Shown here: piece after piece, positions 1 through 14,973 of the stretch
How positions within the stretch are numbered: position 1 is the first letter of the stretch
How the letters are laid out: every line of letters starts with the position of its first letter
Assembly: GCA_005191425.1 (NCBI GenBank)
Contig: SUPR01000086.1
Coordinates: 1-14,973 of the forward strand
Reading direction: 5' to 3'
Length of the DNA: 14,973 bases
DNA from: Candidatus Helarchaeota ASGARD archaeon Hel_GB_B
GTDB taxonomy: Archaea > Asgardarchaeota > Lokiarchaeia > Helarchaeales > HEL-GB-B
Translations under genes and position numbers: made by a program
The notes under the pieces: generated by a model
Database searches by the model: none
Seen by the model: the letters and a program-made list of their open reading frames with translations, nothing else
Told to the model about the DNA's origin: nothing

Positions 1-139
1 GGAAAAATTCATTTCCAATAGAAATCTTTTTTTATCACAAATTTAAATTTTTGAAAAAAAAAGAATATAAATAAATTTATAGAATTAAATTTAAAGCGGT
101 CAAAAATATTAATTAAAAAAAGCAGAAAGTGTTTTTAAA

Positions 140-1519
140 ATGAGAATAGAAAAAGATTTTCTTGGGGCTATAGAAGTTCCAGATGAAGCATATTGGGGCT
201 CAAATACTCAACGAGCTATTCAAAACTTTAAGATAAGTGGAATGACATTTCCATTATCTTTTATTCTTGCGATTATAAAAGTAAAAAAAGCATGTCTTCA
301 AGCAAATTTTGAATTAGAAAATATAGATAAAGAAAAATTTGATGCTATATTTCAAGCAATTAACGAAATACTTATAGATAATAAATATTTGGACCAATTT
401 CCACTGGACATTTACCAAACTGGTTCTGGAACACAAATAAATATGAATGTAAATGAAGTAATTGCAAATAGAGCAAATGAACTACTTGGATATTCGCTTG
501 GCAAAAAATTTCCAGTTCATCCAAATGATCATGTAAATAAATCTCAATCATCAAATGATGTAATACCTACTGCTATGCACATTGCCACATTAGAACAATT
601 AGATTCAAATTTATTTCCTGTTCTGAATGAATTAATTAATATTTTAAACATGAAAATCACCGAATTTAATGATATTATAAAAGTTGGAAGAACGCATTTA
701 CAAGATGCTGTACCAATTCCAATTTCAACTGAATTTAAAGTATATAAACGTCAAATTGAAATAAGTAAAAAAAATTTGGAAAACATATACGATCAATTAT
801 TATATATACCAATAAGCGGGACTGCAGTTGGGACCGGTATAAATGCAGATAAAGGTTTTGGGAATAAAGTAATTAAATATTTAGTAAAATTAGACAATAG
901 GTCCTATAAAATAAATCCAGTAAAAGCAGAAAATATAGCATCCCATTTAATATTAGTAAATATAAGTAGCGCACTTCGATTATTAGCAATTGCATTATTA
1001 AAGATGGCAAATGATATTAGATGGATGGGAAGTGGTCCAAGAGCTGGTTTAGGCGAATTAATTTTGCCACAGAATGAGCCAGGTTCTTCAATTATGCCTG
1101 GTAAAGTTAACCCAACTCAATCTGAAGCATTAATTCAAGTCTGTTTAAAAGTGATTGGAAATGACCTTACAATCTCGTTGGGTGAATTATATGGTAGTAA
1201 TCTTGATTTAAATGTCTGTAAACCATTAATAATAACAAATCTTCTTGAATCTATCAAAATTCTTTCGGGAGGAATTAAATCGTTTATAAAAAATTGTTTA
1301 AAAGAACTAAAAGTCAATGAAAAAGTGTGTTCTAAAAATTTAGAGAATATTCTGATGCTAGTAACTAATCTTGTTCCAATTATTGGATATGATAAAGCCA
1401 GTGAAATCGCTTCTATTGCATATAAAACAGGAAAAACAATTAAAGAAGTAGTTTTAGATTTAAAATTAGAGATTAAAGAAAATCTCGATGAATTATTAGA
1501 CCCTAAAAAAATGGTCTAA
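140..1519 (+). CDS. fumC: Fumarate hydratase class II (fumarase C), 459 aa
   Basis: Contains the family signature GSSIMPGKVNPTQSEAL, plus QTGSGTQINMNVNEVIANRA, HPNDHVNKSQSSNDVIPTAMH, GRTHLQDA and GTAVGTG. The PTQxEAL context fits FumC better than aspartase. Confidence 0.93.
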   Translation: MRIEKDFLGAIEVPDEAYWGSNTQRAIQNFKISGMTFPLSFILAIIKVKKACLQANFELENIDKEKFDAIFQAINEILIDNKYLDQFPLDIYQTGSGTQINMNVNEVIANRANELLGYSLGKKFPVHPNDHVNKSQSSNDVIPTAMHIATLEQLDSNLFPVLNELINILNMKITEFNDIIKVGRTHLQDAVPIPISTEFKVYKRQIEISKKNLENIYDQLLYIPISGTAVGTGINADKGFGNKVIKYLVKLDNRSYKINPVKAENIASHLILVNISSALRLLAIALLKMANDIRWMGSGPRAGLGELILPQNEPGSSIMPGKVNPTQSEALIQVCLKVIGNDLTISLGELYGSNLDLNVCKPLIITNLLESIKILSGGIKSFIKNCLKELKVNEKVCSKNLENILMLVTNLVPIIGYDKASEIASIAYKTGKTIKEVVLDLKLEIKENLDELLDPKKMV

Positions 1520-1613
1520 TAATTATTTTTAATTGTATCATATTAAATAGTAAGAAAATCTCTAATTATAAATAAAATCAAATTTATTTTTTAGAAAAAT
1601 TTAGGAATTAAAT

Positions 1614-1637
1614 AAAAAAAATTGCAAAAAGAGCAAT
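1614..1637 (-). terminator. Possible terminator downstream of the acyl-CoA synthetase (5-bp stem ATTGC/GCAAT followed by a T-run on the minus strand)
   Basis: The + strand reads aaaaaaa-attgc-aaaaaga-gcaat at 1614-1637, in the gap between two convergent genes. The stem is weak and the region is AT-rich. Confidence 0.25.
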
Positions 1638-1694
1638 CTACTTTGTCCATTTAAGTATTTTTAATTATATTTTTTCCTCATAGAGAAATAGATT

Positions 1695-3743
1695 TTAATT
1701 TTTTATCAGATTCCAATCAAATGTGGATTTTGAATCTGGTTTTCCCCATATATCTCTTATTTTTTGTCTTAATACTTTTCCGACTGGAGAAATTGGAAAT
1801 TTATCAGCGAAAATTATCGATCTAGGCTTTTTATACCCTGCTATTTTATCTTTACAATAATCAAGTATTTCTTGTTCAGTTACCTTCTTTTTTGGTATAA
1901 TTACTGCTCTGACAATAGAACCCCAAGTTTCATCCGGGACTCCAATTACGACTACATCTTTTACAGCAGGGTGCTCGGCAATAATTTCTTCGACTTCCAA
2001 CGGAAAAACTTTCTCACCACCGGTATTGATACATTCTTTTTTTCGTTCAATAGTATATAATTCTCCATCTTTTAGATATCCAAGATCTCCACTATGAAGC
2101 CATCCCTCTTCATCAATTGTTTTCCTTGTCTTTTGTTCATCACCATAATAACCTTTCATCACATTTGGACCTCTATATAAAATTTCTCCAATTTCACCTT
2201 CAGGCACTTCATTTCCGTTATCATCGATTATTTTGATTTCAATATTTGGGACTGTTATTCCAACACTCCGGTCTCTTATTGTAGATTCATCGCCATCTAT
2301 TTTGACTGAGGCTGCCGGTGCCATTTCAGTTTGTCCAAAAACGTCTAATATTAATGTTTCCGGAAAATATTTCAAAATTTTTTTCTTAATTTTAGCTCTC
2401 AATAAAGCAGCCCCTGAAAAAGCAACTTGTAAAGAGTTAATTCGCATATCGGGTTTCTCATTATCTAAGTATTCTACAATCCATTTCCACATTGTTGGTA
2501 CAAAAAATGTCCATGTAACATCATTGTCTTTCATTAACTCGATAATTTTAGCCGCATTAAAACTTGGGTCGTCCGGTAATACAATTGTTGCACCAGAAAC
2601 AAGCCAATTTAATATAAACAAAGCATAAGATGCCAGATGAAACAATGGTGGTGTTATTAACATAACTGTAATATTTTCTTCGGTTGGTTTTGCAGATAAG
2701 GATTTAATAATGTTTATTCTATCACTGAAACTACCTTCTAAATGAATTCCTCCTAACAAGAATTTATAAATTAAGCCAGGTAATATACTCAACTTTCCTT
2801 TAGTTGTATAAGCTTTTGGTAATATATTAACGAGATCTCGTATTTGGTCAATCAAAGATCCTTTAAAAATGACATCATATTTTTCTGCTTTCCCTTTAAA
2901 CATTTTTAACTTTCCTTCCACTTGCCTAATTGTCATTGGTGGAATAGGCACTGCACCTTTTTTCGTTGGTAGCTCGAAGACCACTATTTTTGTGTCATTA
3001 GGGTCTTTAAACAATTGCTGATAAATTTGTCCAATAAACATGTTAAGAACTCTTAGTAATTTTTCTTCTACTTTACTCCTAGCAAATTTTGGATAATCAA
3101 TATCTTTTACCGAAGGCAAAAATGACATCAGCAAATTAATTGTAGCTTCTTGATTTATCATCATATTTTCATATGATAGAATTACCCCTTTTGGACGACC
3201 AGTAGTCCCACCAGTATAGATAATTACCGAATCATCATCCCATCCAATATTTTTTACTTTAACGACCTTATTTTTTCCTTTTTGGATTAAAGTATCATAA
3301 TTAAACATATCTTCAGGTAATGTTTGATTTTCTGTTGGCTTTGCGATATAAAATCTTACATTTGGTGTATTTGGCTTAGCTTTAAGGACTAAATCTAATA
3401 ATTCACCTTCAAAAATAAGTCCAATTGAATCTGAATTGTTTAGTAAAAATTCAAGTTCGGATGCAACATACCGATAATTTACTGGAACTGGAACTGCACC
3501 CAAAGCTTGTAATGCAATATTTGATTCAAAAAATTCAGGTCTATTATGAAATAATATTGCTACCTTATCACCTTTTTTAATTTTAAGTCCATTAAAATTT
3601 CTCAATGCATATGCTAGTTTATTAATTCTAGAATATTCTTCCTTCCACGTGTATTTTAAATTTCCATAGACAGTAGATATTCTATCTGCTGGATAATTCT
3701 CAGCTTTTATTTTAAACATTTTGTAAAATGGTGAAATTCCCAT
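1695..3743 (-). CDS. Long-chain acyl-CoA synthetase (AMP-forming, ANL superfamily) with a large internal insertion (SCP2-like), 682 aa
   Basis: P-loop IYTGGTTGRPKG (aa 175-186), PPLFH, FGQTE, GEIGEILYRGPNVMKGYY, WLHSGDLG, RKKECINTGGEKVFPLEVE and the terminal lysine motif PISPVGKVLR. The ~180 aa between the P-loop and PLFH is about 140 aa longer than usual. Confidence 0.92.
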   Translation of the reverse strand: MGISPFYKMFKIKAENYPADRISTVYGNLKYTWKEEYSRINKLAYALRNFNGLKIKKGDKVAILFHNRPEFFESNIALQALGAVPVPVNYRYVASELEFLLNNSDSIGLIFEGELLDLVLKAKPNTPNVRFYIAKPTENQTLPEDMFNYDTLIQKGKNKVVKVKNIGWDDDSVIIYTGGTTGRPKGVILSYENMMINQEATINLLMSFLPSVKDIDYPKFARSKVEEKLLRVLNMFIGQIYQQLFKDPNDTKIVVFELPTKKGAVPIPPMTIRQVEGKLKMFKGKAEKYDVIFKGSLIDQIRDLVNILPKAYTTKGKLSILPGLIYKFLLGGIHLEGSFSDRINIIKSLSAKPTEENITVMLITPPLFHLASYALFILNWLVSGATIVLPDDPSFNAAKIIELMKDNDVTWTFFVPTMWKWIVEYLDNEKPDMRINSLQVAFSGAALLRAKIKKKILKYFPETLILDVFGQTEMAPAASVKIDGDESTIRDRSVGITVPNIEIKIIDDNGNEVPEGEIGEILYRGPNVMKGYYGDEQKTRKTIDEEGWLHSGDLGYLKDGELYTIERKKECINTGGEKVFPLEVEEIIAEHPAVKDVVVIGVPDETWGSIVRAVIIPKKKVTEQEILDYCKDKIAGYKKPRSIIFADKFPISPVGKVLRQKIRDIWGKPDSKSTFDWNLIKN

Positions 3744-4085
3744 AATTTACATCTCTTAATTTCTTAATAAGTATTTGTTTATTCATTATCCTAAATTATT
3801 ATTATTTAATTTTAAAATAATTTTAATTTAAAATATATATTTTTGAATTAAAATATTATAACAATAAGTAGTTTAAAAATATTATGACTTAAATTAATTT
3901 AAATTTAACTCAAAAGAGCTCTAAAAATTATGGCTATAATTATAAAGTTTTTTCAGAAATTTATTAATTAATAGAGAATAATTATTCTTTTAAATTCAAC
4001 TTTTTGATTCATTTTAAGATTAAATAATTTTTTCTTATAATTAAAAAAATAAAAAGTTAAAGAATATAGAAGAGGGGAGTTTTTA

Positions 4086-4712
4086 TTATAAAGAAATATA
4101 GATCCAAGCGGTAATAAATGTTATTATCATAAAACAGATTCCAAACCATTGATTTTTGAAAAATTTAATGTAATTTGCTGCTGAAATATCCCATAAATCC
4201 ACATTATATTTGGTCAAATATTTTTTTAGTAATAAATAAATACCTAATGCGCAGAATACACCAGTCGGAGATGCAATTACCATAGGAAAGGGCAAAACGC
4301 CCAATCCAAAATCAATGAATGAATATGGAAATAAATAGCTCATGACTAACAAAATTCCTATAATAAGACCAGTTCCAATTGCAATTCCTAATAAAAAGTT
4401 GACAGTAGGTCTAATGAATGATGGGATTATAAAAATTATTGAATGAATTAACAGAATAATTGTTGGAATAATATAAATTATACCATGCATGGGAGCTAAT
4501 GAATATATTGCTATTTGCATCATTGTTTGAATTAGATTTGCTGCTGCAAATAAAAAGATAGATCCAACCCATAAATAAAATACAGTACCAACATTTCTTT
4601 TTGGCTGAATTTCTAATGATTTTTCATCCCCTAATTTTAATTCCGAAGTGAATTTAATTACGTAGAATATTAAAGCTCCAATTAAAAAGAAAGAAGCATT
4701 TATTTGATACAT
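4086..4712 (-). CDS. Polytopic membrane protein of unknown function (about 6 predicted TM helices, ~208 aa)
   Basis: Long hydrophobic segments throughout. The ORF track starts at GTG 4721, but that GTG lies inside an AGGTG Shine-Dalgarno-like motif 6 nt before ATG 4712, so ATG 4712 is the likelier start. It lies 14 nt after the phosphatase stop, so the two are probably co-transcribed. Confidence 0.7.
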   Translation of the reverse strand: MYQINASFFLIGALIFYVIKFTSELKLGDEKSLEIQPKRNVGTVFYLWVGSIFLFAAANLIQTMMQIAIYSLAPMHGIIYIIPTIILLIHSIIFIIPSFIRPTVNFLLGIAIGTGLIIGILLVMSYLFPYSFIDFGLGVLPFPMVIASPTGVFCALGIYLLLKKYLTKYNVDLWDISAANYIKFFKNQWFGICFMIITFITAWIYISL

Positions 4713-4726
4713 TTTTAACACCTATT

Positions 4727-5920
4727 CTATGGATGATTACTATTTAAAGTAAATTGGTCAAATAATATACCTAGTGAAGTATATGCTTTTACTGTTAAAG
4801 TTAAATTATTTACTTCGACAGAACAAAATTGATGAATATTTTCAGAATATTGAGTTCCTGCTTCACTCCCAATATATACTTCATTTTCAGAACCACCACC
4901 ACCTGTAACGACATATTGAACTCCGTCCACGAAAATTCGTTCATATTGATGGTCATGTCCACTAAAAACTAAATCTACTTTATATTGCGTAAAAATTGGT
5001 TGTAGGTCTTGAATTTCATAAGGGTCATCTCCGTATCCTCCTGACGAATACAGTGGGACATGAAAAAAGATTATAATCCAATTAATTTTCGAACTAGAAT
5101 TTGCTTTATTTAAATCGTTAATTAACCACGCTTTTTGAGCACTTGAAATATGTACATTTGAAACAGATAAATTTAAGCAAATAATATGCACATTACTGTA
5201 ATTAAATGAATAATACCATTCGTTATTTGGATAATTAAAGAAATTAAAATAATGTTTTCCATTATCACCACTATATTCATTATATTCATGATTTCCTAGT
5301 GTGGTAAAAAAGGGTGCCCGTGCCATAATATCTTTTGCCTCCCAAAAAAATCGATCCCATTGATACTCGAGATTGCTTTGGAATACAATATCGCCTGTAT
5401 GTAAAACAAAAGCTGGATTTGGTTCAGTCTTGAGCATCCTTTTACATATTCTACCATGAGCACTATTTCCGAAAATGTCCGGCCTTGAATCGCCATAAAC
5501 CAGAAAAGTAAAAGGTATTGTGGAATTAGGAGCGGTTTTAAACTGATGGTCTATTAATAATTGAGAGTAATTTTTTATATTTGAAATTATTCTATAATGA
5601 TATATCTTATTTGGCTCAAGTCCAGTTAATGTCACGCTTCTTAAATTACCAATAGAAGGTGTACCTGCTTTTATATTTCCATAACTTATATTCTCACCCC
5701 ATTGAACAGTACCATTCGTAGGAATTGGTGTTTCCCAACTAATTGTCATAGTTGTTTTCGGATCTTCTGTCCATGACAAATAAGGGCCTTTAAGGTTAGG
5801 AGTTTGGAGCCATGGCCCAATATTACTTGTAAACATTATTAATATGAACCCAATGATTATTCCTATTGCTAAAATTATTTTAATTAATCCATTTTTAAAA
5901 TTCTTTTTTAGGCGTGACAT
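4727..5920 (-). CDS. Membrane-anchored metallophosphoesterase of the purple acid phosphatase family (FN3-like N-domain plus calcineurin-like domain), 397 aa
   Basis: N-terminal TM/signal segment (aa ~12-31). FN3-like region (TTMTISWET...VTLTGLEPNKIYHYRI...FKTAP). Metal motifs GDSR, HTGDIV, LGNHE, FFHVP and SGHDHQYER, followed by YVVTGGGG. Confidence 0.9.
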   Translation of the reverse strand: MSRLKKNFKNGLIKIILAIGIIIGFILIMFTSNIGPWLQTPNLKGPYLSWTEDPKTTMTISWETPIPTNGTVQWGENISYGNIKAGTPSIGNLRSVTLTGLEPNKIYHYRIISNIKNYSQLLIDHQFKTAPNSTIPFTFLVYGDSRPDIFGNSAHGRICKRMLKTEPNPAFVLHTGDIVFQSNLEYQWDRFFWEAKDIMARAPFFTTLGNHEYNEYSGDNGKHYFNFFNYPNNEWYYSFNYSNVHIICLNLSVSNVHISSAQKAWLINDLNKANSSSKINWIIIFFHVPLYSSGGYGDDPYEIQDLQPIFTQYKVDLVFSGHDHQYERIFVDGVQYVVTGGGGSENEVYIGSEAGTQYSENIHQFCSVEVNNLTLTVKAYTSLGILFDQFTLNSNHP

Positions 5921-6030
5921 AAATCTATAAAGGTAAAAACATCATATAAAATTTTCTTGAATAAATTTCTTAAAATTTAGATTATTATGTCAATTCATTT
6001 TTTAGATTAAACTTTTGATTTATTTCTTTG

Positions 6031-6060
6031 ATATTTCGATGAATATTTTGCTCGAAATAT
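6031..6060. promoter_or_regulatory. Perfect 9-bp inverted repeat ATATTTCGA-N12-TCGAAATAT in a divergent intergenic region (candidate operator)
   Basis: Arms at 6031-6039 and 6052-6060 are exact reverse complements. They lie between the divergent starts at 5920 (-) and 6187 (+). Function is inferred only. Confidence 0.3.
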
Positions 6061-6186
6061 AATCAATTATCATTAAAATATATGAATTATCTAAAAAACA
6101 ATTATCTTTATAATGAATCTCATTTAAATAAAATATAATGTTATTTACAAGCGGTAATTTAATATTTTAAGGACTGAAATTATAAA

Positions 6187-7377
6187 ATGAGAAATGTAAT
6201 TAAAATAAAGTCAGATTATTATTTTCCAGCAGTTTTAGATAACATATCTGAACAAACTCTGCGAAATAACTTATTAAATTTAGAATTAGAGCCGGTGTAT
6301 TGGGATGATATTGAAATTGGAAATAAAAGTACTATGAAAATTAAAATATCAAATAAATTAATACTACTTTTTATTCTTTTAACTAATAATTTTATATTGA
6401 TTTCAAATAATTTAGACTCTATGATAGCAGGAGGGACATTATTACTCAGCTTTATTTCTGGGTTAACTGGAATTTATCTTTTAGGAGCTGGTATTTTTTT
6501 AATTGAAAAAAAAGAGGCTGAATTTTATCATATTGTAAAAGAAAATGATTTTATAATTGTTCAATCAGAGATTATAAAAAAATGGACTGAAATGAAACAT
6601 AATAAGACAAGATATTTTGTAGAGATAAGTCAAAAAATCTATTTGGTCAATAACAATATAAAATATGATAAAAAGAAATTATTGGTTGGTAAGACAGGCG
6701 CAATTGCAAGCGTACTAAATAAAAGCAGGCCCGATAATATAGAAAAACATCAAATTAAAGAGGAAGTTCATTTCTTTTTACCAAAATTTCTTGAAAATAT
6801 TGATATAAACAATTTGAAAAAAGATATTAAAAAATTAATTGACTATAAAAAAAGAGCAATAATGGAATACATTAAATCAGTTAATTTTAATAATCAAAAT
6901 GTTATTAATGTAGAAAGTAATATTATTTCAATTACATCAAAAATGGTTTTAATTTTTGCATATCTTTCTAATGACTTTAATCCATTACATTGTAGCGAAG
7001 TTTTTGCTTCTAACTTACCTTCAAAACTATTTAATAAAAAGAATATTAGTCATGGAGCTTTAAATATTGGCCTAATTTCTGGTGTTAATAGTATTGTTAA
7101 GTTACTTTTTCCCAATTATAATTTCAAATTGATAAAAAAGAAAAAAGGACAATTTATTAAACCTTTAAAATTTGGGGATAAGATAATTATTAAAAGTGAA
7201 ATGAAATTTGTTAGAGACAGTAAAGATGATAATAATTCGCTCTATTTAGAAACTAATGAAGACGTTTTTCTTTTGCTAGATCAAGAAAATGAAGTTAAAG
7301 AAGTCCTTGCTATTAAATCTGGTTCTATTTATCAAGTATATTGTGAAGGAGATGAAGTGTTTTGGAAGATAAAGTAA
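6187..7377 (+). CDS. Double hot-dog MaoC-like (R)-enoyl-CoA hydratase family protein (degenerate N-domain, intact C-domain), 396 aa
   Basis: The C-domain has FAYLSNDFNPLH (Asp263/His268, the PhaJ-type D-x4-H dyad), ISHG and FIKPLKFGD. The N-domain follows the MaoC pattern (WDDIEIG...LF..LT.NF...IAGG...LISG...G.GI...F...V...D.I) without the dyad. Confidence 0.75.
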   Translation: MRNVIKIKSDYYFPAVLDNISEQTLRNNLLNLELEPVYWDDIEIGNKSTMKIKISNKLILLFILLTNNFILISNNLDSMIAGGTLLLSFISGLTGIYLLGAGIFLIEKKEAEFYHIVKENDFIIVQSEIIKKWTEMKHNKTRYFVEISQKIYLVNNNIKYDKKKLLVGKTGAIASVLNKSRPDNIEKHQIKEEVHFFLPKFLENIDINNLKKDIKKLIDYKKRAIMEYIKSVNFNNQNVINVESNIISITSKMVLIFAYLSNDFNPLHCSEVFASNLPSKLFNKKNISHGALNIGLISGVNSIVKLLFPNYNFKLIKKKKGQFIKPLKFGDKIIIKSEMKFVRDSKDDNNSLYLETNEDVFLLLDQENEVKEVLAIKSGSIYQVYCEGDEVFWKIK

Positions 7378-8210
7378 TTATTACAGCTGCTATAACCGGG
7401 TCAATTCCTTCAAAGAAAAATAATCCAAATATTCCTTATACCCCACAAGAAATTGCTGAAGAAGCTTATAAATCTTATTTAGCTGGGGCATCAGTAATAC
7501 ATTTACATGCCAGAAATCCCGAAACAGGTGTACCTATTAGTGGTAAAGAGAGTGTACCTATATTTAAAGAATACTTAAAATTAATTAAAGAGAAGTGCGA
7601 TATAATTTGTCAAATTACTACTGGTGGTGGCGCTACTACAATTAATGGCATAGAACAATTGGATAGGATTAAACCTGTAATTGAATGTAAACCAGAAATG
7701 GCTTCATTAAATACTGGAAGCTTAAATTTTGGGTCAAAAATTTTTCCTAACCCTCCAGAATTAATAGAAACTTTCGCAAAAATAATGCAAGATTTAAATA
7801 TTAAACCCGAATTAGAAGTTTATGAATTGGGACATATTGAAAGTGCTAAGAAATTAATAATAGAAAAACACTATCTTAATTCACCGCCACAATTTTCCCT
7901 TGTTTTAGGTACTGCCGGGGGCGTCCCTGCTACTCCTAAAAACTTGTTAATAATGAAAGAAGCACTTCCTGTAAATTGTACTTGGCAAGTTATTGCAATC
8001 GGTAAACATCAAATTCCACTTGGAACAATGGGTATAATTATGGGCGGAAATGTTAGAGTAGGATTTGAGGATAATGTATATTTAGAAAAAGGAGTTCTTG
8101 CAAACAGTAATTCGGAATTGGTCGGAAAAATTGCCAGAATCATTAGAGAATTAGGTAAAAAAGTTGCAGATGTAAGTGATGCACGGGAAATTCTTAGTTT
8201 AAAAAAATAA
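7362..8210 (+). CDS. Beta-keto acid cleavage enzyme (BKACE / DUF849, 3-keto-5-aminohexanoate cleavage enzyme family), 282 aa
   Basis: ITAAITG, PNIPYTPQEIAEEA, Zn-binding HLHAR, TTGGG, ASLNTGSLNF, PELEVYELGH and GGNVRVGFEDN. The TTG start at 7362 is preceded by AAGGAG and overlaps the upstream gene by 16 nt. Confidence 0.92.
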   Translation: MEDKVIITAAITGSIPSKKNNPNIPYTPQEIAEEAYKSYLAGASVIHLHARNPETGVPISGKESVPIFKEYLKLIKEKCDIICQITTGGGATTINGIEQLDRIKPVIECKPEMASLNTGSLNFGSKIFPNPPELIETFAKIMQDLNIKPELEVYELGHIESAKKLIIEKHYLNSPPQFSLVLGTAGGVPATPKNLLIMKEALPVNCTWQVIAIGKHQIPLGTMGIIMGGNVRVGFEDNVYLEKGVLANSNSELVGKIARIIRELGKKVADVSDAREILSLKK

Positions 8211-8750
8211 ATATTTTGAAATTAACTGTATTTATCTAATACTTTTTAGATTCATATTGAATTTGATTTTCTTAAGCTAGAGATTAGTAAATATTGAAAT
8301 CACCGTTGCTATTGAGTAAAATTCAAACCCAAGCAATATATTTGTAATTATTACTATTTTTTTTAAATCGTAATGATAATATAATCAGTGCTCCCCAATT
8401 TACGAAAAAATTATGAATTATTGTACAGTTGAAGATATCACAATTTGAAATATGAATACTTAACCATCATTGAAATAATGAATATTAAGTTTAACGAAGT
8501 CCAAATTTTATATTTCCATTTAACAATATTTAATAAGAATTTAAATTACCTGGACAATATTATTTAAATTCAATATTTTAGGACTCTAAGCTAAAAAACT
8601 CAAACTTTTATAAAAAATAGAAAAATATATTGAATATTTATATTTCGTGAGCAAGTAAATATAATAGTCATGATTTTTGTCTATTTTATTGGATTTTATC
8701 TTATTTTTTAGACCTTAAGTTTTCATTTCGTTCTTTTTTCTATAAATTTT

Positions 8751-9683
8751 TTATTTTAACTTTTTCTTATGTTTATAATCTACTACTGATCCAAGTTTTA
8801 CTCCTGCTACAATTCCTAATACGATTAAGATTATATATACTGGAAATGATAACTGGAATTTTGTTTCTCCATATCGCACATATTTTACCAAAAAAGCATC
8901 ATCACTACCTGCTCCAAAACTCGCAGTATATCCGCAGAGATATACATTATTTTCACTGTCTACTGCTATAGCATTGCCAATATCCCAGTTTATTCCACCC
9001 CATGTAGTATTCCACAGCGGGACACCGCTTGTGCTATATTTTACCAGAAATGCATCGGCATTTCCTGCTCTAAAACTCATAGTTTCTCAGCAGATATATA
9101 TATTATTCGCGATGTCCACTACCACACCAAAACCTTCATCGTCAGATGCACCACCCCACATAATATTCCATAACTGAACCCCATTAGAATTATATTTCGC
9201 CAAGAATACATCATATCCACCCGATCCAAAACTCCCAGTTTCTCCACAGAGATATATATTATTTTCACTGTCTATTGCTACACCAGTGCCAGCATCAGAA
9301 TACTCGCCACCCCATGTAATATACCATAATAGAATACCTACAGGATCATACTTTACTAAAAATGCGTCATAATCGCTTATTCCATAACTATGAGGATATC
9401 CACTCAGATATAGATTATTCTTATTGTCCAATGCCACAACAGTGCCAATATCGTCAGATGTACCGCCCCATGTAATATTTAATTTATCTAAATACAACAT
9501 ATTATTCGAGGACGAAGATGAAGCTGATTTAATTATTTTATTTTTATCATTATTTTCCTTATTTTGATTATTAGTTTTCAAAAAATAAACATTGGATATA
9601 TTTAAGTATAATATCGCATAGAAAGAGAGAGTTAATATAATTAATAGCGAAAGTGTTAAAATTTTTGTATTTTTTGACTTCAT
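8751..9683 (-). pseudogene. SBBP-type beta-propeller repeat surface protein (N-terminal signal/TM, four 52-aa repeats, C-terminal TM with basic tail) interrupted by an in-frame TGA at 9087-9089
   Basis: ORFs 9087..9683 and 8751..9080 are in the same frame and read through as NNIYIC*ETMSFRAGNADAFLVKY. Sister repeats read NNIYLCGETGSFGSGGYDVFLAKY and NNVYLCGYTASFGAGSDDAFLVKY, with GGA at the TGA position. Confidence 0.8.
8868..9479 (-). repeat. Four tandem 156-bp (52-aa) coding repeats, WGG...D.G..VA.D..NNIY..G.T.SFG.G..DAFL.KY...G..LW
   Basis: WGG occurs at aa 72, 124, 176 and 228, an exact 52-aa period. At DNA level 8935-8968 and 9247-9280 match at 32 of 34 nt (offset 312 = 2 x 156). Confidence 0.9.
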
Positions 9684-10574
9684 ATATTTCTCAACAATAA
9701 TTAATATATTATTTATACAAATACAGCATTAATCTAAATTATTCATATATTAAAATTAGTCTTTTAATATAAGTTTAAAAATTATTCTATCACTTAAAGT
9801 TCAATATATTGAATTTTATTAAATTAAAAGAGAACATCAATAAAAATAGATTATACAAAGAAGATTGAATAATAAAAAACTTTTAGGATATCTAAATAAC
9901 GATAAATGAAAAAATATATAGTAAACAATACAATAGAAGCGTATTAAATATAGTAAATAAATAATGATGGATTAATTGCGAAAAAAGAATTTTTTAAATT
10001 CTATTGTAGATGAAAAATAATAATTTTTAAATAAAACCATTAAGATTTAAACTTTTTAACAATAGATACGAATTTAAACAATAGATAAACAAATATTTGG
10101 ATAAATTAAGGATAGACCATAACATTTTTGAGTATCTCTTTTACCAATTTCAAAATTTTTTTTATAGTAAAATAGGAATTTAAAATTGCTTTTTAAGTAG
10201 ACACAAAACGCTTCCCTTTAAAATCTAATAATCTTTTGAAGATGGTCTTTTATATAAATATCAAGTTTATTTTCTTTTATATTGGGCAAGTTAAAATTGC
10301 TTTTAAAAATTAAACAAATTATAAGAATTTCAACATTATTCTAAAGACTGAAATTGAATTTTTTAATTAGAAATTTATATTTAATATTCTCCAGAAATCC
10401 TTGTTTAATATTATTTATATGCCCTCAAATATATCAATATCAAAAGATTTCCCCGGATTTTATATTTTTTGGAGAGAATTTAAATTATTTAAATAATTTA
10501 ACTATATAAAGATTTTATAAAATTTCAATTTTATTAATATTAATTTTGTTTTGGACCATTTTCTCGAATACAAT

Positions 10575-10595
10575 GCTAAAATTTTAATATATATG
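10575..10595 (+). promoter_or_regulatory. Possible archaeal BRE/TATA promoter for the thiolase-DUF35 operon (possibly leaderless)
   Basis: gctaaaa-ttttaatatata places TTTAATAT at 10583-10590, about 23-30 nt before ATG 10613, and there is no clear Shine-Dalgarno site. The AT-rich background makes this weak. Confidence 0.3.
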
Positions 10596-10612
10596 AATAT
10601 AAAGTATGATTC

Positions 10613-11815
10613 ATGCCGAAAAAAGTTGCAATAGTTGGGATTAGTGCATTTCCGTTTAGAGTTCGTCATCCACATTATACATATTATAGAATGGCATTTG
10701 AAACAACGAAAATGGCACTTGAAAATGCAAATTTATCTATAAATGACATTGATTCAGCAGTTTATGGTATTTACAATGATTTTTTTGAGAGGCAATTTAT
10801 GCCGGATATTATAGTCCATGATTATATTGGGATGATTTTAAAACCAGGAACTCGAGTGACTACTGGAGGAGCGACGGGTGGGTATGCTATAAGAACAGCA
10901 TATATGGAAGTAGCGAGTGGATTATCAGATGTAGTATTATGTCTAGGAGTGGAGAAATCAAATGATTGTTGGGATCCAAATACGGATACTCGTACTCCTG
11001 AACTTGTTAAAGCGATAAGTTATAGTGCGGATTGTGAATTTGTTAGACCACTTGGCTCATTTCCAGCAGCATCTTATGTATTACCTGTAAGGGCACATAT
11101 TGAGAAGTTTGGAAATCCAAGTGAAGAATCTATGGCACGAGTATCTGTAAAAAACCATGGGAATGCTATAGGAAACCCAAATGCGCAATCTCCTATGAAA
11201 ATTACCGTTGAAGATGTTTTAAATTCAAGATATATTTCAGAACCTTTTAAAAAATTAGATTGTTGTCTTTATAGTGAAGGTGCTGCTGCTATGATTTTAG
11301 CCTCTGAAGAGAAAGCAAAGGAAATATGTAAAAATAGTGGAAATGAGCCCATTTGGATAACTGGAATTGGGGCGGGAAATGATTCAAATTTTGGTGGACT
11401 TCGGAAAAATCTATGGTCTTTGACTTCAAATGTTTATGCAAGCAAACAATGTTATAAAATGGCTAATATTAAGAATCCACTTAAAGAATTAGATGTTGCA
11501 GAACTTCATGATGCTTTTACAGGACAAGAAATACTAAGTTACGAAGACTGTGGATTTATTGAACATGGAAAAGGTTATACTTTAATTGATGAAGGCATCG
11601 TTGAAGAAGGTGGCGAATTACCAGTTAATTTATCTGGAGGTTTAATAGGCTGCGGGCATGCTGTAGGAGCTACAGGTATTTATCAAGCAACTGAAATTGT
11701 TAAACAATTAAGAGGAGAGTCCCATAGACAGGTTTCGGATGCTGAAAAAGGACTTCTACATAGTGTTGGCGGCCCAGTTACTGCTTATTGTGTATGTATT
11801 ATAATGGAGAGATAA
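10613..11815 (+). CDS. Thiolase-superfamily protein of the SCP2-thiolase/archaeal type, lacking the canonical nucleophilic Cys, 400 aa
   Basis: VAIVG N-terminus, VVLCLGVEK, VSVKNHGNAIGNPNAQ, CCLYSEGAAAMILAS, AELHDAFT, VNLSGGLIGCGHAVGATG and HSVGG. The usual xxACASGG loop reads TTGGATGG. Confidence 0.88.
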   Translation: MPKKVAIVGISAFPFRVRHPHYTYYRMAFETTKMALENANLSINDIDSAVYGIYNDFFERQFMPDIIVHDYIGMILKPGTRVTTGGATGGYAIRTAYMEVASGLSDVVLCLGVEKSNDCWDPNTDTRTPELVKAISYSADCEFVRPLGSFPAASYVLPVRAHIEKFGNPSEESMARVSVKNHGNAIGNPNAQSPMKITVEDVLNSRYISEPFKKLDCCLYSEGAAAMILASEEKAKEICKNSGNEPIWITGIGAGNDSNFGGLRKNLWSLTSNVYASKQCYKMANIKNPLKELDVAELHDAFTGQEILSYEDCGFIEHGKGYTLIDEGIVEEGGELPVNLSGGLIGCGHAVGATGIYQATEIVKQLRGESHRQVSDAEKGLLHSVGGPVTAYCVCIIMER

Positions 11816-11818
11816 TAA

Positions 11819-12337
11819 ATGAATAATGTTCCGAAAAAAGATTTTAAAGAAAAATTATTGGCTCAAATTGATCAATTAAACAAAGACCCAAATTTCCATG
11901 AATATTATGATGAAATGATCATTCATTATAAATATTCAGTTGGTGAACTATCAAAATTTTTTGTAGAAATTAGAGATAACGCCAAACTATTTGGTACTAA
12001 ATGTACGAAATGTGGATTTGGATATTTTCCTCCTAGATTATATTGTAATAAATGTTATACAAAATGTGAATGGACTGAGTTAAGTGGTAAAGGGGAAATT
12101 ATAGCGGGTACAATTGCTCATTTTGGAGTCAGTGCTTTTACAGATAAAGTCCCAATTTCAATTGCATTTATAAAAATGGACGGAATGGACATGGCAATTC
12201 GGCATACCATAGTTATGGACGAAGCTGATTATAAGATAGAAAATATGAAAAAAGGCACACGAGTTAAAGTCCAATTTAAGCCTAAAGAAAAGCGTGAAGG
12301 TAAGATTACCGATTTTTACTTTGTTCTGGACAAATAG
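11819..12337 (+). CDS. DUF35-family Zn-ribbon/OB-fold protein (thiolase partner subunit), 172 aa
   Basis: KCTKCG...FPPRLYCNKC Zn ribbon, then WTELSGKGEI and an OB-fold ending GTRVKVQF. It starts 3 nt after the thiolase stop, with GGAGAG upstream. Thiolase-DUF35 pairing is well established. Confidence 0.9.
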   Translation: MNNVPKKDFKEKLLAQIDQLNKDPNFHEYYDEMIIHYKYSVGELSKFFVEIRDNAKLFGTKCTKCGFGYFPPRLYCNKCYTKCEWTELSGKGEIIAGTIAHFGVSAFTDKVPISIAFIKMDGMDMAIRHTIVMDEADYKIENMKKGTRVKVQFKPKEKREGKITDFYFVLDK

Positions 12338-12374
12338 ACTTAATTATAAATATAGTCTAAAATTTATTAAAACT

Positions 12375-12394
12375 AATTTTTTGAAAAAAATTTT
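12375..12394. terminator. Possible bidirectional poly-T terminator between the convergent DUF35 and acyl-CoA dehydrogenase genes
   Basis: aaTTTTTTgAAAAAAAtttt gives a T-run on each strand. Archaeal termination commonly uses oligo-T. Weak in this base composition. Confidence 0.25.
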
Positions 12395-12440
12395 AGAATT
12401 AAATATCAATTTTTAATTTTTTAAAAAGAGTTTGAATGAA

Positions 12441-13586
12441 TTATCTACCCAATTCTTCTCTAGCAATAATCAATCTTTGGATTTGGTCTGTACCTCCGCC
12501 TATTTGCATTAATTTCATGTCTCTTAAATATCGTTCTACAGGATAATCTTTGGTATAACCATCTCCACCACAAATTTGAATAGCATTTAAGCATATTTGA
12601 ATACCATTGCTAGCTGCAAATAATTTAGCCATGGCTGCCTCTTTAAACGGATTTTTACCTGCATCAATGTCTTTACAAAGATGATAAAGCATTAACCTAG
12701 CTGCATAGCAATTTGTTACCATATCGGCGACCATGTGTCTTATAGCTTGAAATTTGGAAACTGGCCTATCAAATTGAACTCTCTGTTTTGCATATTCCTT
12801 AGCTGTTTTAATGGCACCCAACATTAAACCGGTAGCTTCTGCAGTTGCAGTTGCCCTCTCAGTAACAAACATTTTCATTAGTATATTAAACCCTTCATTC
12901 AGATTTCCTAACAAATTTTCTTTAGGTACTCTAACATCTTTTAAGTCTAACTTAACGTTATGAACTCCACGCATCCCCATTAAATCAAACCGCTTTTCAA
13001 CAGTTAATCCCGGCGTTCCTTTAGGTATTATAAATGCGCTCATTCCTTTTTGAGGTCTTGATGCATTTGAGTTTGTTATTGCCCACAAAACATGCTGCCC
13101 AAGGCCACCGTTTGTTATAAATCGTTTTTTTCCATTTATAACCCATTCATCTCCTTCTAATACTGCTTTGGTTTCCATCCTTGCAGCATCAGACCCAACT
13201 TGTGGTTCAGTTATACATATACTCCCAAGAGTTTTTCCTTCAGCTATAGGCCTCAAAAATTTCTCTTTTTGTTCATGGGTTCCTGCAATATTTATTACTA
13301 CTCCAGAATAAATTGTTGCATTCCTTGCCATAGAAACAGCAGCACTTACCTGTGCCAACTCTTCGACTACAATACAATGATATAAAACTCCTTTTTCAGA
13401 ACCACCATATTTTTTAGGAAATGGTAATCCAAAATATTTTTTACCAATTTCTTCGAAAATTTTATTGGGAATTTCATTTGTCTGTTCTATTTCTTTTGAA
13501 TATGGCTTAATTTTTTCCTTTATAAATTCTTGTACTGACTTTCTAAATTCTTCCTCTTCTTTTGTGAAAATTGAATATTCCTTCAT
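12441..13586 (-). CDS. Acyl-CoA dehydrogenase (catalytic Glu at the IVD/LCAD-type position), 381 aa
   Basis: [72 protein letters not shown] and [11 protein letters not shown]. Confidence 0.95.
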
Positions 13587-14039
13587 TAATCTTCACTATC
13601 CTTTCTTGTTAATTTTTGAATTGATTTTTGTAGACCATTAATTTAGTTATTAATTTTAAATTCTTTTTATATAAAAGGTTTTTTCAGAAATTTGAACATT
13701 TAAAATAAAAAACAAGAAGATTTTAATCAATTTAAAGCAGTAGTAATTTCTATTTTGAACAAATCCTATATAAATTAAAAATATGACCAATTTATAGAAA
13801 ATAATATTATTTTTTAGACTAGGAAATGCCTATAAATAAAAATTTCGAGTATACTACAATTTCTATGTATTAAATATAAAATATGCTACAGAAGATAATT
13901 GTAATCAGAAAAATAACTAAATGAATATGGAAAATATCCAAAAAATATTGCTATAATTAGTTAAAAATGAATAAAAACAAATAAAATTAATATTATTGTA
14001 TTCTGAATATTTTCTAACTTTTTATTAATTGTTTATGTT

Positions 14040-14483
14040 TTAACTAGGATAAATTGCAAGCATTCTTTGAATTTCGCGGTCTAAGCCCATCTCACCGATA
14101 GCTCCAACTACTTGATGTACTGGCCTACCATTTTTAAAGAAAATAAATCTTGGTATGCTTTGTACATTTAGTCGTAAGGCTGTTCTTCTATTTTGTTCCG
14201 TATTTAATTTGCAAAATTGTACTTGTGGATATTTATAAGATAAATTGTGGAATGGTACTGCCATCATTTTACAAGGATAGCACCAATCAGCCCAGAAATC
14301 TATCAATATTAATTTTTCTGTACTGGATATTATATGATCAAAATTTTGATCTGTTAAATTAATAATCTCCGATCTTACCGGTTCTTTTTTTACTGTCTCT
14401 TCAGTTTTCTGTGAGGAATATCTTAATAATTCCTTAAGTTTTCTTTTTCTAATTTTTTCCAGTTCGGGGTCATCATTACTCAT
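14040..14483 (-). CDS. trxA: Thioredoxin with N-terminal charged helix extension, active site WCYPC, 147 aa
   Basis: IDFWADWCYPCKMM (Cys68/Cys71), FCKLNTE, VQSIPRFIFFKNG and VVGA. The N-terminal extension is DDPELEKIRKRKLKELL. AGGTAA lies upstream of the ATG. Confidence 0.88.
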   Translation of the reverse strand: MSNDDPELEKIRKRKLKELLRYSSQKTEETVKKEPVRSEIINLTDQNFDHIISSTEKLILIDFWADWCYPCKMMAVPFHNLSYKYPQVQFCKLNTEQNRRTALRLNVQSIPRFIFFKNGRPVHQVVGAIGEMGLDREIQRMLAIYPS

Positions 14484-14593
14484 TGTAAATTACCTATTTC
14501 ATTAATTTATCAGAAGATTAAAAGGTATTTAATTCTAAAGATCATTTAATTTATTAGGGTATAATAAAAAATCAGTTATTATAAATATTTAGC

Positions 14594-14607
14594 TGACATT
14601 ATTGTCA
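14594..14607. promoter_or_regulatory. Palindrome TGACA-N4-TGTCA in the divergent trx/hypothetical intergenic region (candidate repressor site)
   Basis: Exact 5-bp arms at 14594-14598 and 14603-14607, just downstream of a TATA-like ttattataaat (14576-14586) oriented toward the ORF at 14634. Confidence 0.25.
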
Positions 14608-14633
14608 TTCAAATATAAAAGGTAATAGAAAAG

Positions 14634-14973
14634 ATGAGATTTGCAGAAATTGGAAAAAAATCTTTAAAGGACGAATCAGCTGGAAGAATATTGATTGAAG
14701 TGCCATTAATATTAATTGATAAATTAAATTTTTCATCAGAAAAAAATGAAATTATAAAGAAAACAAAACAATATTATGATTTACTAATAGATTGGATTAA
14801 TAAATTTGAAAATGAAATAAGACCAATTAATAAGATGTATATTATTTCTTTAACAAATTTAGATGATTTAGAAAAATATATTAATGAGAATTTTAATTTC
14901 TATGAAAAATTTAGGGACTATTTATTACAATTATTAAATAACAAAACAGTCGAATTAATTGAGGACGAGGATT
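14634..14973 (+). CDS. Hypothetical protein, truncated by the window end (>=113 aa: MRFAEIGKKSLKDESAGRILIEVPLIL...KTVELIEDED)
   Basis: My translation from ATG 14634 has no stop up to base 14973. AGGTAA lies upstream. It is absent from the ORF track because it lacks a stop in the window. No family recognised. Confidence 0.7.
   Translation, partial: MRFAEIGKKSLKDESAGRILIEVPLILIDKLNFSSEKNEIIKKTKQYYDLLIDWINKFENEIRPINKMYIISLTNLDDLEKYINENFNFYEKFRDYLLQLLNNKTVELIEDED

Follow-up and report, generated by a model that had tools for sequence, protein, structure and literature searches.

What can a thiolase-fold protein do once the cysteine that accepts the acyl group has been lost? The question is raised by a gene on contig SUPR01000086.1 of Candidatus Helarchaeota archaeon Hel_GB_B (assembly GCA_005191425.1), analyzed here within a stretch of 14,973 nucleotides (nt), positions 1 to 14,973 of the contig, referred to below as the window. 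The gene encodes a Cys-less protein related to SCP2/archaeal-type thiolases, here termed T*, and its translation (10613-11815, + strand) contains no internal stop. As judged from its sequence and by analogy with characterized enzymes, T* may be the catalytic subunit of an acyl-CoA C-C lyase that is bound to DUF35 and works not by thiolysis but by retro-aldol cleavage; this is the reading we favour, tentatively and at somewhat less than an even chance. The features on which the argument turns are the following:

10613-11815, + strand: Cys-less SCP2/archaeal-type thiolase-fold protein (T*), 400 amino acids (aa), with Pfam domains Thiolase_C_1, Thiolase_C and Thiolase_N
10856-10882, + strand: nucleophile loop VTTGGATGG, aa 82-90, with G86 (codon GGA, 10868-10870) in place of the acyl-accepting Cys
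11507-11518, + strand: HDAF motif, aa 299-302, with H299 kept and A301 in place of the acid/base Cys of HDCF
11651-11662, + strand: GHx motif C347-G-H349-A350, aa 347-350, with the His kept, Pro replaced by Ala and Lys by Cys
11759-11773, + strand: HSVGG loop, aa 383-387, equivalent to HNxGG or to the classical CxGGG, with a family-invariant Ser384

Thiolases' alpha-beta-alpha-beta-alpha fold was recovered by Pfam, by sequence matches to the Protein Data Bank (PDB) and by an AlphaFold2 model (pLDDT 81.5, pTM 0.87), with which Foldseek retrieved the same set of proteins as the sequence search (TM 0.79-0.87 to thiolases, Ltp2 and Sal). The best HMMER match in the PDB was the Pyrococcus furiosus thiolase (7yvy, E = 3e-55), followed by the thiolase-like protein ST0096 of Sulfolobus tokodaii (4yzo, E = 1.5e-47); the thiolase of the thiolase/HMGS/DUF35 complex of M. 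thermolithotrophicus was also matched (6esq, E = 1e-43), and SCP2-thiolases, BbsB, Ltp2 (6ok1), PhlC and Sal (9myr) appeared at lower ranks. In these alignments G86 faces the Cys that serves as nucleophile in 7yvy (EAACASGG) and 6esq, the HDCF of 6esq faces HDAF, and G86 is aligned as well with the nucleophilic Cys of four canonical paralogues from the same genome. A previous sequence-only reading of this DNA had placed Gly86 at the nucleophile site and pointed out HDAF, His299, Cys347 and His349, and both translation and HMMER alignment to 7yvy and 6esq agree with it. Its remark that the canonical second Cys is missing stands for one loop and not for the other. By these alignments, the true loss of the second Cys is the change from HDCF to HDAF, while a Cys-free C-terminal loop such as HSVGG is normal for SCP2/archaeal-type thiolases, since the canonical paralogues of this genome read HN[VL]GG; what is specific to the family in that loop is the replacement of Asn by Ser384. 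When classical thiolases are aligned, either Ser384 or Val385 lies opposite the Cys of CxG, the alignment being ambiguous by one residue. The changes that are significant at the sequence level are hence four: Cys to Gly86, HDCF to HDAF, KGHP to CGHA, and Asn to Ser384.

The same reading held that the protein is neither a standard thiolase nor Ltp2, which fits the loss of both Cys and the profile scores: 0 of the 32 matching NCBIfam families, thiolase and lipid-transfer models included, reached its cut-off (best NF004720, 337.8 bits against 420), and the Ltp2-type model NF005892 gave 175 bits against a cut-off of 469. An alignment was built with Actinomycetota genes above the NF005892 cut-off and two YDCF-type proteins, which stand in for TcLtp2 and CtSal themselves; no Ltp2 was found in 14 control genomes. 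In this alignment the Gly of the Ltp2 family coincides with G86, the Tyr of YDHF with H299, its His with A301, and the second Tyr, 50 residues further on, with H349, so that the two Ltp2 tyrosines fall where the sequence-only reading had put them, on His299 and His349.

Is the missing Cys a peculiarity of one gene, or the mark of a family? The T* family was defined by the motifs GGATGG, HDAF, CGHAVGATG and SxGG together with a DUF35 gene immediately downstream; the window protein has all four motifs and the downstream gene, and is placed inside the tight T* clade. GGATGG, HDAF and GHAVGA are kept in all 120 best homologues (53-88% identical), GGATGG, H299 and H349 are invariant among 121 homologues, and identity stays at or above 53% throughout the family, across both domains. 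Conservation is higher in the active-site loops than elsewhere in the protein (0.90 vs. 0.69; Mann-Whitney p = 1.6e-14), reaching 0.99 both for HDAF and for GGLIGCGHAVGATG. Because the motifs are kept family-wide and these loops exceed the remainder in conservation, the sequences indicate that the loss of Cys is neither decay nor a product of chance or sequencing artefact. Thirteen residues are invariant in T* and different in canonical relatives (G86, Y51, Y54, N55, R60, D65, C119, Y220, E222, A301, C347, A350 and S384), several of them on the beta2-alpha2 loop, which in Sal shapes the substrate cleft (PMC12329534).

All 56 canonical relatives have Cys at position 301, where the T* family has Ala; position 347 is Lys in 36, Cys in 9 and Arg in 8 of the same 56, where a Cys is unusual, not unique, as far as the alignment goes. 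Residue counts of this kind also bear on whether T* might be a true thiolase whose acyl-accepting Cys has moved to position 347, 119 or 218. Cys218 is indeed invariant, Cys119 occurs in 116 and Cys347 in 113 of the 121 homologues, and Cys347 lies two residues from His349. Canonical thiolases, however, likewise have Cys or Ser at the site of Cys218, which is aligned with what we take, in Z. ramigera numbering, to be the pantetheine-binding Ser of classical thiolases; the Lys or Arg found at position 347 in most canonical relatives would suggest a side chain directed away from the tight catalytic pocket; and position 116, which adjoins the nucleophile pocket, varies among C, S and A across the 121 homologues, with Ser in the window protein. 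The acid/base Cys is gone too, and we know of no relocated nucleophile in the thiolase superfamily. A displaced Cys is accordingly judged improbable.

A scan of one genome per species yielded at least 308 relatives, the best 80 of which came from Asgard archaea (Helarchaeota, Loki-type, Hod-, Odin-, Hermod- and Atabeyarchaeia), Thermodesulfobacteriota and other bacterial metagenome-assembled genomes. In an even sample of the window's phylum T* was present in 20 of 151 genomes, 18 of these 20 belonging to a single family, of which 25 genomes were sampled. Members are named 'thiolase family protein' or 'acetyl-CoA acetyltransferase' in databases. One bacterial copy (L011, DATKTP010000091.1, labelled Candidatus Deferrimicrobium sp.) is 87% identical to the Helarchaeota-type protein, other bacterial copies being 54-60% identical, and probably either comes from an archaeal contig that was binned wrongly or was transferred very recently. 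Two T* copies in a single Asgard genome (G151:C14:70696-71949 and G151:C2:154580-155833) each contain one in-frame TAA inside the match, and could, from their sequence, be pseudogenes or reflect an insertion or an assembly problem.

When the library was clustered at 50% identity the T* family collapsed into a single representative, and the next ones (49-39% identity) were other Cys-less variants, with the patterns G/HDAF/FGHP, A/HDLI/CGHV and G/HDAF/CGHF. A FastTree phylogeny, of a kind that had been proposed along with the first reading, resolved T* as a tight clade nested among Cys-less sequences in a super-clade separate from the large clade of canonical Cys/HDCF/KGHP proteins, and the combination of Gly with HDA[FY] and GH[PA] was found repeatedly in separate clades of the tree. 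The host genome (28% GC, 3.5 Mb, 182 contigs), whose T* has its closest relatives in proteins named Helarchaeota or Promethearchaeota, encodes seven thiolase-fold paralogues, three of them Cys-less with HDAF and four canonical (Cys/HDCF/KGHP/HNxGG); given these four thiolases, T* would not be needed for thiolysis. Two Cys-less HDAF paralogues belong to clades other than that of the window protein: C121:1035-2309 (+ strand), with GGNTGG and YGHP, and C96:2048-3277 (- strand), with GPASGG, RGHP and Pro at the nucleophile site.

With which partner would such a protein act? The gene downstream of T* starts 3 nt past its stop codon, and its translation contains a CxxC-x10-CxxC zinc ribbon:

11806-11809, + strand: GGAG, 9 nt upstream of the DUF35 ATG and inside the 3' end of the T* gene, read from the sequence and a resemblance to consensus only
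11819-12337, + strand: stand-alone DUF35 partner, 172 aa, with a C4 zinc ribbon and an OB fold (Pfam zf-ChsH2 and OB_ChsH2_C)

The neighbourhoods of 81 T* genes from 78 loci (47 archaeal and 31 bacterial) were compared. Of these 81 genes, 66 have DUF35 as their immediate same-strand successor, with a 4-nt overlap in 25. DUF35 was found in 44/47 archaeal loci and in 25/31 bacterial loci, plus 8 masked; loci apparently devoid of it are mostly cut short by the end of the contig, or are GC-rich and had their DUF35 gene hidden by an antisense open reading frame (ORF). Nearly every T* gene has a DUF35 gene just downstream of it, coupled to it in translation. Asgard loci usually comprise a triad of T*, DUF35 and a 123-aa protein without a Pfam match at default thresholds (L014, L015, L018, L021, L023, L030, L035 and about 30 further Asgard loci, e.g. 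L068:4525-4896). Each of the 12 such 123-aa proteins examined gave a weak match to PF02036 (best E = 3e-7), and their profile matches PDB entries 3cnu and 3bn8; by sequence this protein is SCP2-like, and its assignment to MaoC was discarded (hhalign probability 0.1%). It was present in 38/47 archaeal loci, was not found in the 31 bacterial ones, and is missing from the window. The notion that an Asgard T*-DUF35-SCP2 unit was the direct forerunner of eukaryotic SCPx was likewise rejected, the SCPx-type Cys/HDCF thiolases falling in the separate canonical clade.

This association lends some plausibility to T* being an inert acyl-CoA-binding or scaffold subunit, a pseudoenzyme that together with DUF35 (and, in Asgard archaea, SCP2) would present lipids or acyl-CoAs to beta-keto acid cleavage enzymes (BKACE), MaoC or acyl-CoA dehydrogenase (ACAD). 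Both catalytic Cys are gone, DUF35 is a known enzyme-bridging scaffold (archaeal thiolase/HMGS; the FAS complex of S. acidocaldarius), and the SCP2-like lipid carrier follows DUF35 in most archaeal loci. Yet it is the former catalytic loops that are best conserved, the replacement residues are invariant across archaea and bacteria, the identity maintained between domains would be unusual for a relaxed site, and no catalytic thiolase paralogue regularly adjoins T*, all of which makes a purely structural role quite unlikely.

On what substrate could a catalytic T* act? The window contains, around the T*-DUF35 pair, the following genes:

1695-3743, - strand: acyl-CoA ligase, 682 aa (NCBIfam), in one homology cluster with the ligases of 44 T* loci
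6187-7377, + strand: MaoC-like double hot-dog hydratase (Pfam), of the same cluster as the MaoC genes of bacterial T* operons
7362-8210, + strand: BKACE (Pfam BKACE, E = 1e-95), overlapping the MaoC gene by 16 nt
12441-13586, - strand: ACAD (Pfam), convergent neighbour, of the same cluster as the ACADs in 26/31 bacterial T* loci

The BKACE gene clusters with those located directly after T*-DUF35 in bacterial loci, where the usual order is DctPQM, T*, DUF35, BKACE, ligase, MaoC, ACAD; the window thus holds the same set as the bacterial operon (ligase, MaoC, BKACE, ACAD) in a looser arrangement. Across the compared loci, the recurrent neighbours were distributed as follows (AOR, aldehyde:ferredoxin oxidoreductase; Fe-ADH, iron-type alcohol dehydrogenase):

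CoA ligase: 25/47 archaeal, 19/31 bacterial
NMO-type flavoenzyme: 22/47 archaeal, not found in the 31 bacterial
Crotonase: 16/47 archaeal, 4/31 bacterial
ACAD: 7/47 archaeal, 26/31 bacterial
BKACE: 5/47 archaeal, 14/31 bacterial
TRAP transporter: not found in the 47 archaeal, 13/31 bacterial
MaoC: 2/47 archaeal, 7/31 bacterial
CoA transferase: 1/47 archaeal, 4/31 bacterial
AOR: 5/47 archaeal, 1/31 bacterial
Fe-ADH: 5/47 archaeal, not found in the 31 bacterial
SDR: 3/47 archaeal, 1/31 bacterial

SDR was detected in only 4/78 loci, and no classical 3-hydroxyacyl-CoA dehydrogenase appeared among the annotated recurrent gene clusters of the 78 loci. Eight loci carry AOR or Fe-ADH (aldehyde/alcohol enzymes), including the closest Helarchaeota orthologues (L009 and L012) and an unrelated bacterial locus (L013), in all three of which AOR lies two genes downstream. 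There, DUF362 and AOR follow T*-DUF35 in L009 (5888-9096) and L012, and an FMN reductase and AOR occupy the same place in L013 (9736-12244; Thermodesulfobacteriota). Two apparently conserved clusters without a Pfam match (c17 and c11) were discounted, since they most likely arise from ORFs antisense to GC-rich genes for DUF35, ACAD or ligase.

Gene context also weighs on the possibility of other enolate chemistry at the His/His site, either decarboxylation of a 2-carboxyacyl-CoA of malonyl type or hydrolysis or isomerisation of a beta-substituted acyl-CoA. A site that keeps the His pair and both oxyanion holes and has lost the nucleophile recalls the Cys-less ketosynthase-like decarboxylases; the Cys-less relative TbSLP slowly decarboxylates malonyl-CoA (PMC12329534), and the TRAP transporters that head 13/31 bacterial operons are of dicarboxylate type. 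The rate of TbSLP is very low, however, and its authors now suspect an aldolase (PMC12329534); no carboxylase, mutase or other gene making a 2-carboxyacyl-CoA recurs as a neighbour in the 78 loci, and the ACAD plus hydratase context points instead to a 3-hydroxyacyl-CoA substrate. We regard this chemistry as unlikely.

Retro-aldol (or aldol) chemistry on a 3-hydroxyacyl-CoA is favoured here because it would need the oxyanion holes that are retained, plus a proton shuttle, and none of the lost parts, which would serve a covalent acyl-enzyme and the acid/base step of the cysteine. This reading draws further on the Gly at the nucleophile site, as in both proven thiolase-fold aldolases (Sal and the Ltp2 family), on a context of activation (ligase or CoA transferase), ACAD and MaoC/crotonase hydratase, with a dehydrogenase rarely and AOR/Fe-ADH occasionally present, and on the coupled DUF35, the conservation of the active-site loops, the 13 family-specific residues and the recurrence of Gly with HDA[FY] and GH[PA]. 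Among the mechanisms listed by the sequence-only reading, the non-covalent use of the two His comes out ahead, and the non-catalytic subunit loses ground.

Both oxyanion holes of the thiolase fold appear to be retained in T*: the first would be formed by the side chains of His299 and His349, and the second by main-chain NH groups from two loops, that of Gly86 and S-V-G-G. The T*/DUF35 complex would bind acyl-CoA as thiolases do, with no acyl-enzyme possible, and the C2-C3 bond of a hydratase-made 3-hydroxyacyl-CoA would be cut by a retro-aldol route, in which the backbone at Gly86 would support the 3-hydroxyl or alkoxide, in the manner proposed for Sal and Ltp2, and the His pair would hold the leaving acetyl-CoA enolate. 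The proton shuttle would be a family-specific residue, with Ser384, Cys347, Cys119, Tyr51, Tyr54 and Tyr220 as candidates, and the products would be acetyl-CoA and an aldehyde or ketone. In a speculative pathway, TRAP would import a carboxylate or dicarboxylate to be activated by the ligase, ACAD would desaturate it, MaoC would hydrate it to a 3-hydroxy (possibly tertiary) acyl-CoA, and T*/DUF35 would cleave the latter; the carbonyl product, if it were a beta-keto acid, could then react with acetyl-CoA on BKACE to give a shorter acyl-CoA and acetoacetate. The association with BKACE suggests a beta-keto acid product in some lineages, as would arise if the substrate were a 3-hydroxy-3-substituted glutaryl-type CoA ester.

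Several observations weigh against a retro-aldol lyase. The proven aldolases have a Tyr base at the position of His299 and a Cys or Tyr acid, so that the His, Ala and His of T* make an incomplete analogy, and the CGHA loop has a pLDDT below 50 in the AlphaFold2 model. Only about 1/3 of the loci have a hydratase near T*, and about 10% have AOR or Fe-ADH; for the BKACE link, the sole explanation is the speculative substrate just described. Searches of the available literature, including HDAF with thiolase and BKACE with DUF35, found no paper on the T* family.

Some further observations concern the surroundings of T*. In Asgard loci, cassettes of the order DUF35, thiolase-like, thiolase-like, DUF35 lie a few genes from T* (L039:5164-7591, L066:2399-4830, L070:5050-7537 and L074:3180-5558), and their thiolase-like proteins, without Cys and most His motifs (e.g. 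RVFNGGGTG, EPYDPF, GQAWG), resemble Ltp3/Ltp4-type heteromeric sets. In the window, two ORFs of 109 and 198 aa (8751-9080 and 9087-9683, both - strand), 6 nt apart and both with SBBP beta-propeller repeats, may by their sequence be one gene broken by a stop codon or frameshift. The T* gene is preceded by a 930-nt AT-rich spacer (9684-10612) with no ORF longer than 57 aa, whose weak repeats look like AT-rich chance matches; an Rfam scan of the window, the spacer included, gave no match.

What would follow for metabolism? The T* family is large, strongly constrained, uncharacterised and generically annotated, and is common to Asgard archaea and Thermodesulfobacteriota. Reconstructions of Asgard or sulfate-reducer metabolism that trust database names count its members as thiolases of beta-oxidation or of the mevalonate pathway, which T* almost certainly is not. 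An aldolase function would bring the known active-site designs of thiolase-fold aldolases from two to three and hint at an unrecognised degradation route for lipids or acids beyond normal beta-oxidation; as a compact two-protein system, T*/DUF35 should be easy to express and assay. A bolder proposal, and in our estimation a very unlikely one, is that T*/DUF35 represents a third, independently evolved aldol solution in the thiolase fold, reusing the His/His oxyanion hole without a covalent intermediate, and defines a variant form of beta-oxidation in Asgard archaea and in bacteria that live syntrophically or reduce sulfate. If true, the NAD-dependent dehydrogenase and thiolase steps would be skipped, 3-hydroxyacyl-CoA would be converted directly into acetyl-CoA and an aldehyde or ketone, and the latter would be taken up by a ferredoxin-linked aldehyde oxidoreductase, or by BKACE where it is a beta-keto acid. 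In reverse, the joining of acetyl-CoA and an aldehyde would offer a thiolase-independent and thermodynamically easier C2 elongation for lipid synthesis in archaeal relatives of eukaryotes.

How does T* compare, finally, with known thiolase-fold systems? The closest solved sequences are archaeal/SCP2-type acetoacetyl-CoA thiolases (P. furiosus PFC_04095, 7yvy; 6esq; 31-32% identity), which have in common with T* the His of HDxF, the His of GHx, the KNHxNAxxNP motif and a stand-alone DUF35 partner, but possess a CxS nucleophile, the Cys of HDCF, GHP and HNxGG where T* has Gly, Ala, GHA and HSxGG. ST0096 (4yzo) has also lost both Cys and kept both His, yet it presents Ser at the nucleophile position, HDMA and GHP, and belongs to a different clade; a search for its reported function found none. 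PhlC/MucB, of the Friedel-Crafts acyltransferases PhlABC/MucABC (5m3k, 9vbo), are likewise thiolase-fold subunits working with a DUF35 protein, and were repurposed from an archaeal-type thiolase complex, with the CxS Cys acetylated in the structures (PMC12960953). Their pattern is the reverse of that of T*: they keep the CxS Cys and GHx and have lost HDxF, whereas in T* HDxF and GHx remain and the Cys is gone.

CtSal-CtShy (9myr), the retro-aldolase of the bile-acid C5 side chain in Comamonas testosteroni, shares with T* the SCP2-thiolase fold (Foldseek E = 3e-27, TM 0.82), a Gly at the nucleophile position and a bound DUF35, and acts after a MaoC hydratase in its pathway. In CtSal this residue is Gly89, with a backbone amide to which the substrate hydroxyl is proposed to bind, Tyr302 and Cys304 of YDCY form the catalytic pair, and Gln352 stands where Ltp2 has Tyr344 (PMC12329534). 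The Tyr302/Cys304 pair was not found in T*, which reads HDAF (Sal residues from PMC12329534; two YDCF-type proteins aligned) and has His299, Ala301 and, in place of the Gln at the GHx position, His349. Moreover, the DUF35 of Sal is fused to a hydratase, while that of T* is a separate protein of 172 aa; identity is about 23%. TcLtp2-ChsH2 (6ok1), the retro-aldolase of the steroid C3 side chain, has the same fold (E = 2e-28, TM 0.79), Gly in the nucleophile column, a DUF35 partner and an LDCC motif before the (D/E)GA strand. Its base is Tyr294 of YDHF and its acid Tyr344 (PMC12329534); in the alignment with NF005892-positive proteins both tyrosines are His in T*, and the DUF35 of T*, unlike that of Ltp2-type systems, stands alone and is not fused to a MaoC hydratase. 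The combination of an aldolase-type Gly and DUF35 with the His pair of thiolases was not described in the literature found. T* has, nonetheless, a coupled DUF35 partner as do Ltp2-ChsH2, Sal-Shy, BbsAB and the archaeal thiolase complexes, and, on the residues compared here, would be a third active-site variant of DUF35-dependent thiolase-fold lyases, beside Ltp2 and Sal.

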